From Tricharina praecox (Eukaryota), in assembly GCF_024521635.1 (NCBI RefSeq), contig NW_026250418.1, positions 434,001-498,000 of the forward strand: a DNA stretch of 64,000 nucleotides. The letters run 5' to 3'. Position 1 is the first letter of the stretch; the number at the start of each line of letters is the position of its first letter. Of the stretch, positions 37,494 through 44,400 are shown one piece after another. The position numbers and the translations under genes were made by a program. Below the pieces are notes generated by a model, which worked only from the letters and a program-made list of their open reading frames with translations, searched no databases and was not told the DNA's origin.

Positions 37494-38669
37494 TCACCGC
37501 TCTCCATCCGTCTTCCCTTCCTTCTCCGCCCTCACAGCCATGTATCCTTTAAACGCCTCCAGCTCCTCCTTTCCGATCGGATACGTATGTTCCTTCTTCG
37601 GATACTCGCCCTGCCTAACCTCGCGCATATACTCCTCCATGCCGCTCTTAGCATGCTCAAACAGATTCGCATAGCGCTTCACAAACTTCGGCATGAACCT
37701 TCCCTCGGGGTAGTGGCCCAGCATATCGATCTGGACCAGCACCTGCCCACTGGTGCCCGCGCCCGCGCCAATGCCAATAGTGGGCACATCCAGCTCCTTG
37801 GTGACGATCTCCGCGATCTCGGCGGGGACGGCCTCGAGCACCATGCCGAAGCACCCGGCCTCCTGCAGCGCCAACGCATCCGCCAGCAGCTTCTGCGCCG
37901 ACGAGAGCGTCTTACCCTGCACGCGGAACCCGCCCAGCGACGACGCGCGTTGCGGCGTCAGCCCGATGTGCCCGAGCACCGCGATGCCCAGCGACGTGAG
38001 CCGCTTAATCGTCGGCGCGAGCTCGGAGCCGCCCTCTAGCTTCACGGCGTGCACCCGCCCCTCTTGGATCAGCCGGATCGAGGATTGGATCGCTTGTTCG
38101 GGGGACACTTCGTACGAGCCCATCGGCAGGTCGCCGATGAGGAAGGCGGACTTGACGGCGCGCGAGACGGCCCGGCAGTGGTGCAGCATGGCGTCGAGGG
38201 TTAGCTGGTTGGTATCCTGCGCTCCCACATACGTTAGCTGTCCGCAACTTCTTCCCCTCTGCGTGCGTGATGTGCGTCAACTCACTTCCATGCCCAGGGC
38301 GACCATTGCCAGCGAATCACCCACGAGGACTATGTCGACGCCCGCCAGGTCTGCCGCCAGGCCCGACGGGAAGTCGTGGGCCGTCACCATCGCGATCGGA
38401 GTCTTTGCGGCATGGAGGTTGCGCAGCGTGTTGATGGTGACCTTCTTCCGTGTGGGGGTAGCGGTCGGCGATAGTGGGGAGTGCGAGGACGATCGACATT
38501 GTGTGTAGCGGTGTTGTTGCTGGGGTGGTGGTTGTCGACGTTGACGCAGGGCGGTTTGTGACACCCCAATCACGTTGGATAACGGACGGGCGGCGATGGG
38601 CGTTAGAGTTGAGCGCCATGCGACTGGTGCCAGACGCCGTAGCAGCGAGGTCGGTGGTTGGAGGGGCAT
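37494..38669 (-). CDS. panB: 3-methyl-2-oxobutanoate hydroxymethyltransferase (pantothenate synthesis) with mitochondrial presequence
   Basis: [17 protein letters not shown]-type motif [49 protein letters not shown]. Confidence 0.96.
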
Positions 38670-39511
38670 ATCTTCTCGGGGCCGACTTTGTCTTCCAGCT
38701 GCGCACGCTTCGGCTTTGTCCTCCGTCCGTCCGCTAGTTATCGCTCTTTTTGAATCCTTTGAAGCGCCGTGACGGAAAGAATACCGTGGACCGCGCGATG
38801 CAATGTGTGATTCCGAAGGGCCTTCTTTCTTGGTGGGATTTTGTAGAGATTCTGAAGATCCTCATTCCCCCTTTCTCCTAACTCCTTCTCCTTTTTAGTC
38901 GGTCGGATGGACGTCGGCCCGCCGTGAGAAAAAATAATCTGTGATCGAGACCAGGCCCTCGGTAAAACCGTGACAGGCCTTTCCGGGTAGTGGTCATGTC
39001 GCCACCAAAGATTCCCATGCCTTCCCCCGCCTTGCATTTCCCCTGATGCAGCCAGCTTATGTACCTACCCCGCAATGCGACCCCGCCAGTGCATGGTGAT
39101 AACGGCGGCGGTGGTGGTGGTGGACCATGGTGGTACATACTGGTGATGGAGGTGGAGGTCATGTGGGTGCTGCGTATTTCATGACGCCCGTGACTTTATT
39201 GCCGTTCCCGGCCGTCCGTCGCACTTCCACTCTCACAAACCTCCGCCAGCACCTACCTCTTCGTCCTCCACGACAAATATCTACACCTAATCATCAATAA
39301 GCAAATAGTCGTACCCGCCGATTCACGTAGAAAGCTGGCAGAGCGCCTTTCCATCGTCCCTTCCATCAACCCCGTCCATCAATCCCAGCAATCCACCCCG
39401 CTAGCGCCAACAAGCTCTTCAAAGCTCTCGCGAACATCTTGAGCTTCCTCGCCTCCATTCGCGAACAAACGACCAGCGATCACACAAGCCAGCCAGCCAG
39501 CTTCTACAGAA

Positions 39512-40620
39512 ATGAGTTCGCCAAGGAGAAGGATCGAGACCGATGTGAGCCCGCCCTGCCCGCCAGCTTTCCTCAGGTGTACGGAATAGTGTATAGTAAT
39601 GACGCGTGCTGCTTGCGGGAGGAGTAGGTCATGAAGTATGCAACTCACCCTCTCTCTCTCTCTTTCATGCTCCTCTCTCTCTCTCTCTCCATAGCTAACA
39701 CTCCCGTACAGACTGTACGTTCCCCCCGCCGACCTGTGCTCGACCAGCCAGCCCCGACCTGACCAGACCTGACCGTGTGAATGTGTCTATGTACAGGTTG
39801 ATGAGCGACTATGAAGTCACCCTGGTGAACGACAACAGTATGCTCCATCTACACTCACCTTTCTTCCGCCCTCCCTGCCGTCGCTGACCGCGAGTGCACA
39901 GTGTACTATACCTACTCTCCCCTTCAGCCCGCCGTTGTCCCATCGCACATCACATCGCACTCGCTGACCACCGCCGCAGGTCCGAATTCTTCGTCCGCTT
40001 CAAGGGCCCGGAAGAGAGTGAGCACATCCCCCCCGTCCCTCCCTCCCTCCCCCGCCCCCTCCTTTCCCCCCTCACTAACCCCCCTCCTTTAGCACCCTTC
40101 AAAGGCGGCACGTGGAAGATCCACGTCGAGCTGCCGGACCAGTACCCGTACAAGTCTCCGTCGATCGGCTTCCAGAACCGCATATTCCACCCGAACATTG
40201 ACGAGATGAGCGGGTCGGTCTGTCTCGACGTGATCAACCAGACGTGGTCGCCCATGTACGACATGATTAACATCTTCGAGGTGTTCCTGCCGCAGCTGCT
40301 AAGATACCCGAATCCGACCGATCCCCTCAATGGGGAAGCGGCGGCATTGTTGATGCGCGAGCCCAAGGCGTATGAGGAGAAGGTTAGAGGTATGTGAAAG
40401 TCGAGGGAGGGGGAGCGGGGGAGGGATGGGATTAGGGGGGGAGGGGCCAGGGGGGGAGGGAGGCTGATAAGGTGTGCGGACAGAGTATGTCGAGAAGTAT
40501 GCGACCAAGGACGCGATTGAGGATGGCACCGACGACGACGAGGAGGAGGACGAGATGAGCTCCGTCGGTAGCTATGGCGACGACGAGGACGACGAGCCCG
40601 CGGGGCAGATGGAGGTCTGA
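39512..40620 (+). CDS. UBC8: Ubiquitin-conjugating enzyme Ubc8/UBE2H; proposed 8 exons: 39512-39544, 39628-39635, 39712-39714, 39797-39837, 39902, 39980-40017, 40093-40389, 40484-40620 (558 nt, 185 aa)
   Basis: Spliced product [47 protein letters not shown]...[23 protein letters not shown]...acidic tail. Confidence 0.95.
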
Positions 40621-41445
40621 CGTCGACGTTTTCGTATCTTTTTTCCCACCTTTCCCCACCTTTTTTCCTACCTTTTTCCACCGCCTGTTTGTTTCCGTTG
40701 GCCCAATGATGGGGTTCCTTGCCTTGCCTTGCCTCGCTGGTGTTTTTGTGTATTTTTATGGACTTTTCCTTGTTTCTTGTTTGTGTAGCGGGTTGATGGA
40801 TGCGTGGAACGTGCGCGTAATGAATGAGATCTCGAGAGTCGAGACGGCGTTGCGATTGCACGCTTCGTGTTTACCTTTCCGTCCGTCAAGTACTCAGTAC
40901 TATGGTGACGATGCCCGAGCCTTTCCCGTCTTCTCGTTCTCTACTCTCATGATGAGGGTCGCATCCACGAAGATGAATAGAAAAAAAACGAACGCCGATA
41001 CCGGAGCTTTTCGCTTCCCGCTTCCATTATGTTTCAAGCTATATATTCCAAATAAATATCCAGACAGAACATCAGACAGTACCTCAAGCAAAAAAGCAAA
41101 ACTCCTCTATCATCCTATCCCCCTCTCCCCCACCCCCACCTTCTCCGTAAAACATCGTGTGAATAGACTACCATACTGTAGCAAAGAAGAAGCCAGGAAA
41201 TAAGTGTTATATTTACAGGGTGAATTGAAAACCACCCGAAACCGAACCCAAAAACGCCAAAATGAAGCCCCCCCCTTTCGCGCCGCCCCCCGTCGCCCCC
41301 GAAAAGGAAAATAAGAAAACGACTGGTGTAGAGGTAGGTAAGGTAGGTAGGTAGGATAAAATAATCTTCAAGATGGAAAGAGAAAAAACGCCTAGACGTA
41401 AAGAAAGATCCCCAGCAAATACCGTATGAAATCACTTAACATTAC

Positions 41446-44400
41446 CTACTCCTTCTTCGCCTCCGCCGCCGCCGGGGGGACAGCAGCGCCCAAAAACCAA
41501 CCCCCGCGCTCCCACTGGCCAGGGACATACTCTGCCTCGCGCCGGAGGGCAGTATCTCTCGTGCCCTCGAGGAGCTTTCCCAACCGACCAAAGTCAATCG
41601 GCTTCAGGATCCACCCGTCGAAGCCGATGTCGGCGTACTCGATCCAGCGCTCTTCGAACAGCGACGCCGAGACGGCAAATATCGGGATGCGGCCGTGGGT
41701 GGCGTGGCGGCGGGGGACGGGGTGCTTCGAGTTCGACTCGAGCCCGCGGATGCGCGTCGTCGACTCGCTGCCGTTCATTATTGGCATCTGTGCGGATTGT
41801 TAGTGTGAGTGATCGGATTCCAGATGGGGTGGGGATGGCAATAGATAGACTCACCTGCATGTCCATCAGGATTGCGTCGTAGTCGGCGCAGGCTTTGCTG
41901 AAGCTGTGGAAACACTCGTCGCCGTTGGCGGTCATGGCGACGCTGTGGCCCATGCGTTCCAACCTGGAATTACCGCTATTAACATAATTCCTTTCGCAAA
42001 ACGGGGTCTGCGTCTGCGTCGAGAATGCCTCACCTCTTCTTGATGATCTTGCTGTTGATAGGATCGTCTTCTGCGACCAAGATGGTGAACTTGACCGCAT
42101 CTTCCGCGCGCACCTGCGCTGGCTGCCTAGCAGGCGGCGGCAAAGGCACCACGGCACCCGACGGAACCGTGTCACCCTCACACGGAATCCGCACCGGTCT
42201 CACGGGCGCCAGGCTTCCACTGAGGATTTCCTTGCCTGGCGAGAACTTGCCGTCCATCAACCGATCAAACACCGGGGCCTTGTAGGAAGACTTAGCTGCA
42301 CCCGCCGATGCCGGTCGACTCGGTACGAGTGGACGCGAGGGCGGCGATTGAGGTCCATCCGCCACCAAGCTGGAATTTGCAGTGAAGTATTCATTCGTCG
42401 AGGAAGGCGAGCCGACGATGGACGGGCTCGAGATGGCATCGACGAGCCGGTCGATCTCAATCGAGCTGGCACTCATGGAACTTTCGCCCCATTCGGGTGC
42501 GTTCCACTTGGCAGGTGGTTGGATCAGAGTCACCTCGCCTTGCGTTGGCGGAGGTGTTCTGGCCGGTTGCTGAATCGCCACATTGTCCGGAGACTCCTCC
42601 TTGGGAATTGTAAACGGAACACACAGAGTAAACCTCGAGCCCTTCCCTTCCTCGGACTTCAGTCGCAGCTGGCCATTCATATTCCTAATCGCACGAGCTA
42701 CGACAGCAAGTCCCAAGCCAAGAACCCTTTGGCCAGGCATCTTGCTAAGAGCATTGAAGGATGCGCTCTCTTCGTGGGATAGCGAGAGGATATCCCCCTC
42801 CTCCTCCGTGTGGATTTGTTCGAATTCTCCGAAGAGAATGTTCAGCTTGGCGGGCGAGATTCCCTCGCCAGTGTCTTCAACTGCGATTTCGATATCGCAT
42901 TTCCCACCTTGGATGCCCCCAGCCCATATCTCAATCCTCAGTCCTCCCGCGGACGTATGTTTGACGGCGTTGGCCGTGACATTGCTGATGACCTGTCGCA
43001 GTCGTGCCGGGTCTCCCTTGACATACGATGGTAGGCCTGGATATTCCACCACCTCGAAAGTGAGTTTCTTCCGATCGGTATCCGCACGGAACTTGTCCGT
43101 CGCTTCGAATACTACCTGGCGAAGGTCAAAGATTTCATCCTTCATCAGGTCCTGGCCCTCTTCTGTGCGGGTGAGATCCAACAGGTCATTGATAACATAA
43201 ATCAAGGACTTCGATGCAGAATGGGACCGCGCCAAGTTGTCGCGAGTCTCTGTATCGAGCGGTCCTTCGAGTGCTATCTCCAAATAGTTGATGATGGCGT
43301 TTAACGGTGTCCGGACTATCAACAGATTAGCACGAAGCGTCTGCTGTACCTAGGTAAGTACTCATGAACACCTCACCTTCATGTGAAGCATTAGCAAGCA
43401 GCAGTCGAGTGAGCTGACTATTCTTCAGCGCAGCCTCTTTCTGCCTCCACACCTCAATAAACTTTCCATACACCAAGCAAAGTACCGCCGCGGTTTCGAC
43501 TATTCTCCCCGCACAAGTGATTAGCAAAGCAAACCTCCCCATCCCCCATCCCCCAGACACATCCGGATAAAATCCACACACCTTGTTCTTCGGTCCATTC
43601 ACGACTTCGTCCAACGACAGTTTCTGACCATATCTGTCGATACCAATGAGTCTCCCCTCACTACGACACTACGACGGGGTCGCGAGTTTACCTTGAAGCT
43701 TGTCTAAATTTACATATTAGCCTGTGATTCCAAACTTCTAAGATATCCATAGCACCTTACCCTTGGCTCGAGATACGCATCTGTACCTTCCTTCAACTTC
43801 TTATCGTACGGATTTCCAGCCCAGTGGACGTGCTGTGCGCGCGAGAGTTCTTGTCAGAAAAGAAAAAACAATCAAACCCAGACCTAGACGACCAACTAAC
43901 CGATATCTGTGGCTGTCTGAAAAACACTATAAAGTCGCGCCCTTCAGAGCTCAGCGGCACCAACAACAAGCCAGCAATGACCTTGAACCCGGGCTTATAT
44001 TTCAGATCTGGGAAATCCTTTACCATGTCTTGCGAGGTGATAACAGTGTTAAAGTTCCTGACACGCAGATACTCGAGCATAGCGAGGGCCTCCTGCGAAT
44101 TCTCCGACTTGCCCAGCACCTTCGTTTCGTCGCGGATGCTCAACAGACCACAGTCGGCATCGAACAGCTTCAGCAGGTCATCGGAGCTCGCAACGATATA
44201 GCCGCCCGGATTCTGTTCCGTGGGCACGGTGTTGATCAGTTTGCGAGCGTGCAGCCGTCGGGCGTACGACAGACGCTCGATGGTGCGGCTGGCAGTCTCG
44301 CCGACTAGACGGCACATCTTCCGGATTGGAAACGATACGCGCATCGGACTGTAGGAATGGCAGGAAACGAGGCCCCATAGCTGGTTGAAAGCGGTGATGG

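Follow-up and report, generated by a model that had tools for sequence, protein, structure and literature searches.

Two complete introns flank a single conserved nucleotide retained in the UBC8 mRNA of Tricharina praecox

The window analyzed here is a stretch of 64,000 nucleotides (nt) from Tricharina praecox (assembly GCF_024521635.1, contig NW_026250418.1, positions 434,001 to 498,000), a species placed in the Pezizomycetes (looked up). The gene under study lies at 39512-40620 on the forward (+) strand of the window and encodes a ubiquitin-conjugating enzyme (E2) of the UBC8/UBE2H type. The model consists of eight exons of 33, 8, 3, 41, 1, 38, 297 and 137 nt, and a script check gave a spliced length of 558 nt, 185 amino acids, zero internal stops and GT..AG ends in seven of seven introns. 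The original prediction, made from the letters of the window, had proposed that the fifth of these exons is a single nucleotide, T39902, and that one ATG codon is therefore assembled from three exons. Its coordinates and letters for the exons and introns at 39837-39980 proved exact on rereading of the sequence, and the proposal itself was borne out by spliced contigs and by conservation in relatives. The features of the gene are listed in Table 1.

The peptide of exon 7 matched the UBC core domain (PF00179) with an E value of 9.7e-33 and a score of 113 bits (cut-off, 27) and contained the HPN motif and the active-site Cys, while exon 8 encoded an acidic C-terminal tail. The HPN and Cys motif and a tail of this kind are what we take to be the hallmarks of a UBC8/UBE2H-type E2. 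Among the matches listed, the nearest named proteins were labelled 'E2 8', 'E2 H' or 'UBC8' and had identities of 90-100%. Alignment of the model with an intron-free protein (P0006) covered 185 positions, of which 95.7% were identical.

Table 1. Exons and introns of the UBC8 gene in the window, with their signals and the support for each
Feature	Length (nt)	Coordinates	Strand	Letters or signals	Support
Exon 1	33	39512-39544	+		X1 and X2 contigs span 39400-39546
Intron 1	83	39545-39627	+	GTGAGC..TAG	absent from both contigs
Exon 2	8	39628-39635	+	GTCATGAA	contig letters at the joint; threading in relatives
Intron 2	76	39636-39711	+	GTATGC..CTAAC..CAG	
Exon 3	3	39712-39714	+	ACT	contig letters at the joint; threading in relatives
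Intron 3	82	39715-39796	+	GTACGT..CTGAC..CAG	
Exon 4	41	39797-39837	+	3' end GAC AAC A	contig pieces over 39797-39837
Intron A	64	39838-39901	+	phase 1; GTATGC..CTGAC (branch A 39887)..CACAG	absent from both contigs
Exon 5	1	39902	+	T, middle letter of Met codon A/T/G	contigs; AG-T-GT; conservation
Intron B	77	39903-39979	+	phase 2; GTACTA..CTGAC (branch A 39967)..CGCAG	
Exon 6	38	39980-40017	+	G TCC GAA TTC .. GAG A	contig pieces over 39980-40017
Intron 6	75	40018-40092	+	GTGAGC..CTAAC..TAG	flanking contig pieces adjacent in records
Exon 7	297	40093-40389	+	UBC core with HPN..C	PF00179; contigs
Intron 7	94	40390-40483	+	GTATGT..CTGAT..CAG	contig joint 40387->40482 (cut +2)
Exon 8, coding part	137	40484-40620	+	acidic tail; TGA 40618-40620	contigs

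Splicing of the gene was examined with contigs from two public runs, X1 and X2, which belong to two studies and in which the share of sampled words was 0.44 and 0.42, respectively. Contigs were placed on 39400-40900, and each run contributed one, of 1012 nt (X1) or 942 nt (X2). Both contigs agreed with the exons throughout (other letters, 0; gaps, 0) and skipped all seven introns. Between 39837 and 39980, exactly one extra letter, a T, was present in each contig. The mature RNA reads ..AAC A-T-G TCC.. (junction ACATGTCC), which is the joint that the original prediction had proposed to seek in transcripts. The letters CATGAAACT stood between 39546 and 39797 in both contigs and represent the remainder of exon 2 followed by exon 3; the first GT of exon 2 is absent from them because the aligner put that GT on the donor of intron 1. 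The contigs ran past the stop codon and ended at 40775 (X2) and 40792 (X1). Contigs lose rare variants, and minor isoforms lie outside their reach. Two further runs, the metatranscriptomes X3 and X4, gave no contig on the gene and carry no weight either way. When the contigs were placed, two stretches were flagged as repeats and skipped: a CT-dinucleotide run in intron 2 (39639-39699) and C-rich sequence in intron 6 (40024-40066).

Contigs of this structure could also arise from retro-copied DNA or an assembly error rather than from mRNA of the locus, a possibility to which the guessed kind of the runs (RNA) and the existence of an intron-poor, frameshifted copy in one relative (L080) lend something. 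We regard it as extremely improbable: the same joints were present with 0 mismatches in two runs of two studies, the junction recurs in independent proteins, free of introns, from other samples, and a retrocopy would descend from a T-carrying mRNA anyway. The two contigs also stop no more than 17 nt apart, at 40775-40792, although the DNA of the window continues, a weak hint of a common 3' end.

The contigs also bear on whether the main mRNA of the gene takes another in-frame route. The original prediction had named an acceptor at 39927 as the competing choice, and this acceptor is in frame as claimed, giving 609 nt with zero stops and 18 residues in place of the Met. A second route is embodied in the deposited T. 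praecox model (P0005; 179 amino acids), the best match among the named proteins listed. It is 100% identical over exons 7 and 8, but its exon 1 continues into the sequence of intron 1 and exons 2, 3, 5 and 6 are left out; this type of structure is likewise open, with 519 nt and zero stops. Neither joint was present in the X1 and X2 contigs, which carry exons 2, 3, 5 and 6 and so disagree with the deposited model, and both routes would break the conserved segment NDNM[QS]EF[YF]VRFKGP. The homologues read NDNM[QS]EF[YF]VRF at this site, as had been stated at the outset. There is thus very little to recommend either route as the source of the main mRNA, and the use of 39927 in particular found no place in the contigs.

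The signals around T39902 were those of two separate introns. Introns A and B were both complete, with a donor, a branch motif, a CAG acceptor and an ordinary length (64 and 77 nt, compared to 75-94 nt for the other five introns of UBC8), and the branch A of the CTGAC motif lay 14 nt from the 3' end in intron A and 12 nt in intron B. The arrangement AG-T-GT occurred once in 39838-39979, at 39900-39904, and it is because this is the lone AG-T-GT of the interval that T39902 is taken to be a real 1-nt exon. When the interval was shuffled 20000 times, AGTGT appeared by chance in 543 of the shuffles (2.7%). One further arrangement, AG-T-GC, was found at 39893-39897. Folding of the RNA of 39797-40017 gave a z value of -1.15; 23 of 200 shuffled sequences folded equally well or better, and there was no sign in this segment of a structure presenting the T.

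Conservation was assessed by scanning metagenome contigs for a degenerate exon-4 end (AAYA) followed by GT. At least 116 loci were obtained and flanks were taken for 80; the counts given below for relatives are among the matches listed, and many of these metagenome loci may stem from related organisms. Exon 6 was located downstream in 115 loci, with L111 being too short, and these reduced to 90 distinct intervals. An AG-T-GT was counted if both resulting introns were at least 35 nt. Exactly one such arrangement, together with an AG/G end, was present in 88 of the 90 intervals; L070 had two candidates and L080 had none. The middle letter was T in 89 of 89 intervals, and position -3 held a C in 52 of them, a T in 35 and an A in the other 2. 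AGTGT was found in 6.6% of interval shuffles (1192/18000). Exon 4 ended in AAYA in every relative, as the pattern required. Lengths ranged from 46 to 107 nt for intron A and from 47 to 95 nt for intron B, the median being 58 nt in both cases. A YTRAY branch motif was present in 88 of 89 copies of intron A and 64 of 89 copies of intron B; its median distance from the 3' end was 12 nt. The intron sequences had nothing in common beyond these splice signals.

The independence of the loci was gauged from the codons of exon 7 in 75 loci and the window, each with at least 90 of 98 codons recovered. This set formed 52 single-linkage clusters at 90% DNA identity, again among the matches listed, and its median pairwise identity was 0.78 overall and 0.48 at third positions, which is near saturation. 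The locus nearest to the window was L025, with an exon-7 identity of 85%. The Tricharina-like lineage has an unusually weak donor for the T-exon, and L025, like the window, lacks a G at +5 of donor B (GTATCG). The locus without an AG-T-GT, L080, is an intron-poor copy of UBC8 with a frameshift in the core that is closest to Penicillium proteins, and it carries a decayed 42-nt remnant (CGG-T-GTATGT) where two introns are expected. L080 is likely a pseudogene or retrocopy and was set aside. As a separate observation, a single full-length tblastn piece for the exon-7 peptide was obtained in only 29 loci, of which 4 had the expected 288 nt and the others were longer; this hints at extra introns inside the exon-7 region of many lineages, compared to the single 297-nt exon in the window.

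The relatives and the local signals together allowed other origins of the extra T to be weighed. It could come from T39895, at the AG-T-GC, through use of a GC donor, or from a noncanonical splice or a post-transcriptional insertion, and the contigs are blind to which T was used. T39895 would have a branch A just 7 nt before its acceptor and would require GCACAG as a donor. One lone intron cannot supply the letter, as no T adjoins the joint on either flank. Furthermore, the comparison with related fungi that had been suggested from the start shows that it is AG-T-GT, not AG-T-GC, that the relatives keep (89 of 90 distinct intervals). An origin of the letter other than T39902 was therefore judged very improbable.

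The 1-nt exon is not the only ultra-short exon of this gene. For 87 distinct loci, the 21 nt encoding VMK(M/L)(L/M)MS were threaded through the DNA upstream; 9 loci lacked exon 1 in the DNA retrieved. Among the matches listed, the layout of the window, with exons of 8 and 3 nt, was found in 66 of the 87 loci, and a single fused exon of 11 nt was found in 19. Intron 1 had been lost in one locus (L070) and introns 2 and 3 in another (L081). At its 5' end the gene strings together ultra-short exons of 8, 3 and 1 nt, and the T-exon is part of this series.

Taxon labels were given to the loci by comparing exons 7 and 8 with named proteins; class was looked up for six species, and the remaining classes of named proteins come from general knowledge. 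Three loci (L018, L051 and L063) were 98-99% identical to proteins of Wilcoxina and Trichophaea (Pezizomycetes), four (L003, L017, L020 and L076) were 99% identical to Parastagonospora (Dothideomycetes) and one (L068) was 99% identical to Hyaloscypha finlandica (Leotiomycetes). Identities of 100% were found between L067, L069 and L073 and Pyrenophora or Alternaria, which we take to be Dothideomycetes, and between L024 and Cenococcum, presumably of the same class. For the Sordariomycete-like loci, the best identity to named proteins was just 90-94%. On these labels, the arrangement appears to be at least as old as the common ancestor of the Pezizomycetes and the other sampled classes of Pezizomycotina.

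Protein annotations were then compared at the Met codon. The best 120 homologues included 80 named cluster representatives from Pezizomycotina. Only 5 of the 80 (P0018, P0025, P0050, P0056 and P0111) read NDNM[QS]EF or DDNMQEF. The remaining 75 were wrong at this codon, a proportion that is not a per-genome rate, as cluster representatives over-count diverse wrong models. Exon 6 was missing altogether from 29 of the 80 models. An R preceded QEF in 20, corresponding to a codon AG+G in which the end of intron B is read through. A V occupied this place in 11 models, such as those of Pyricularia (Sordariomycetes) and Penicillium chermesinum (Eurotiomycetes), and would correspond to a G-T-G codon formed by in-frame retention of intron A and use of the donor after the T. 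The residue preceding this V fitted the NYA codon family in 10 of the 11 models, in agreement with a Y at -3 and an A at -2. Three models read NDN-S-MQEF, in which the second GT of a GTATGT donor (+5/+6) may have been used, with the addition of 4 nt rather than 1. Seven read NDNKFYV, in which an AAG within exon 6 was probably taken as the acceptor and a K replaced three residues. Other models skip exons 5 and 6 or run on through the introns. These types of wrong model, although known from proteins and not from DNA, are what a hidden 1-nt exon would be predicted to produce.

The unnamed proteins from short contigs gave a different picture. Of 27 such proteins, 23 read the correct junction, NDNM[QS]EF, with NDSMQEF in P0004 counted as a close variant. 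Proteins of this sort are probably derived from RNA, being intron-free. Two of them could be matched to loci over exons 7 and 8, P0006 being 99% identical to L025 and P0008 being 100% identical to L033, L044 and L048.

Overall, these analyses of sequence and transcripts show two complete introns with one letter between them that is retained in the mRNA, and an arrangement that is conserved. We consider it very likely that T39902 is a constitutive 1-nt exon of this UBC8/UBE2H-type E2, that the complete introns A and B on either side are removed stepwise and that the layout is old. Several points weigh against this interpretation. The X1 and X2 runs were classed as RNA by guess only ('RNA?'), and the introns are bare of contigs, though a gap proves nothing. 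T39902 is put forward as the source of the letter on the strength of its AG and GT flanks and of conservation. The window has a weak donor B (GTACTA) that is without a G at +5, a position at which 84 of 89 relatives among the matches listed have a G. The scan pattern needs intron A, and hence lineages without intron A are invisible and the counts are conditional. The labels of Sordariomycetes and Eurotiomycetes come from protein identities of 90-94% or from misannotated proteins and not from the DNA of named genomes. Finally, the splicing order and the steric argument considered next are drawn from general knowledge.

Pairing of splice sites intron by intron is usual for short fungal introns. 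Introns A and B are complete U2-type GT-AG introns, each with its own donor, CTGAC branch site and YAG acceptor. Each would be recognized across the intron, such that a 1-nt exon would require no exon definition. With both removed, the A of exon 4, the T and the G of exon 6 together form the Met codon that is conserved in NDN-M-SEF. Intron A has its acceptor AG inside the -3 to -1 exon positions of donor B and its branch A ~16 nt upstream of that donor. Removal is expected to be stepwise because, as a matter of general knowledge, two spliceosomes cannot occupy both introns together. Introns A and B would thus be removed sequentially, with either order being chemically possible. We lean slightly towards removal of A before B, because intron A is transcribed earlier and because the exon side of donor B would then change from AGT to CAT (YAT in all relatives), which would pair better with U1.

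The original prediction had gone further and proposed that skipping of the T acts as a frameshift switch leading to nonsense-mediated decay (NMD). The donor of exon 4 and the branch site and acceptor of intron B would form a plausible intron of 142 nt, and in a gate of this type, which would add to the constitutive reading, the ratio of inclusion to skipping would tune the level of Ubc8. Direct joining of 39837 to 39980 does cause a frameshift, as had been claimed, with a stop after 79 codons at 40207, ahead of the last intron. The weak donor B of the window would favor a gate, and for plant VPS55 some isoforms include the 1-nt exon and others lack it (PMC8831610). Both contigs, however, carried the T-included form alone, though contigs lose rare variants, and the strong conservation is explained by the requirement for a Met codon and an intact frame alone. 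The switch found no support in these data, and we consider a regulated gate unlikely.

The constitutive 1-nt exon can be set beside known forms of unusual splicing. In a stwintron, the outer intron has its donor, acceptor or branch signal split by an inner one, and this signal exists only once the inner intron has been excised; the order of removal is thereby fixed, and no letter remains between the two. UBC8 resembles a stwintron in having two short fungal introns side by side that are not removable simultaneously. It was rejected as one, as the signals of both introns are intact in the primary transcript and one nucleotide is retained. The likeness to stwintrons drawn by the original prediction was therefore loose, holding for the adjoining short introns but not for an interrupted signal or a forced order. 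At a recursive splice site, or zero-length exon, AG/GT keeps no nucleotide and serves the stepwise removal of long introns. An acceptor followed directly by a donor is common to both, but AG/T/GT in UBC8 leaves a coding T, and a recursive site was rejected on account of the T retained in the mRNA.

Exons of 1 nt have been described in plants. In Arabidopsis APC11, mutational proof was obtained and the cDNA letter tracked the genomic letter (Guo & Liu 2015, PMC4674806), and 1-nt exons of APC11 and VPS55 were reported across land plants together with pervasive misannotation (Yu et al. 2022, PMC8831610). The exon of UBC8 is like these in having one nucleotide between AG and GT and in being constitutive, critical for the frame, clade-wide and absent from reference annotations. 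It differs in kingdom and gene, and its letter lies in the middle of a Met codon and is hence fixed as T. The plant flanking introns are long, with A333 lying 333 nt into a 422-nt interval, in contrast to the introns of ~60-80 nt in UBC8.

Two reports concern fungi. According to its authors, the 1-nt exon of Fusarium CYP621A is the second such case in all and the first from a fungal gene (Nelson & Syed 2026, PMC12940212). Shared features are a fungal nuclear gene, an AG-N-GT in an over-long 'intron', restoration of phase in a conserved motif, support from reads (from the SRA sequence archive in that study) and models that are mostly wrong. The letter in CYP621A is a G, and the case concerns a single genus (20 orthologues) and a rarely expressed P450. 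In UBC8 the letter is a T in a housekeeping E2, present in several classes of Pezizomycotina and situated beside exons of 8 and 3 nt. In a long-read annotation of Coprinopsis cinerea, 13 genes have exons of 1 nt, 13 in all (PMC12230235), and the kind is thus not unique among fungi. Coprinopsis is a basidiomycete, and in the portion of that text consulted the genes are unnamed and an analysis of conservation is absent. Full-text literature searching, with subscription journals and supplements outside its scope, found no report of a micro-exon in UBC8. The description of such exons as very rarely reported was fair, but the literature on this kind covers plants and, from 2025-2026 onwards, fungi as well. 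Exons of 1 nt are already known in plants and fungi, and the UBC8 case adds a deeply conserved example.

Two other features lie near the gene. On the reverse (-) strand at 38277-38861, the end of an open frame resembled the start of ketopantoate hydroxymethyltransferase (PF02548; E value, 3.7e-13), and this frame probably represents exon 1 of a gene diverging from UBC8. Downstream of UBC8, a weak, sub-threshold match to a response-regulator receiver domain (PF00072; 19.7 bits compared to a cut-off of 30.2) was found at 41446-41799 on the reverse strand.

These results provide a clean, transcript-supported 1-nt exon in a conserved housekeeping gene, in a group that includes standard laboratory species. 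In the boldest form of the interpretation, which we hold to be doubtful, the T-exon would be ancestral in Pezizomycotina and probably the most widely kept 1-nt exon of fungi, held together with the exons of 8 and 3 nt; obligatory two-step splicing would act as a kinetic gate, with T skipping leading to NMD and setting the level of the E2 of the GID/CTLH ligase. The locus is a practical natural substrate for studying how abutting introns are handled under intron definition, in which order they are removed and how skipping is avoided. It accounts for a systematic annotation error, the deposited P0005 model included, and extends what was a curiosity of the genus Fusarium (2026) to a layout kept while synonymous sites were nearly saturated. 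The finding is thus of use both as an experimental model and as an annotation fix.

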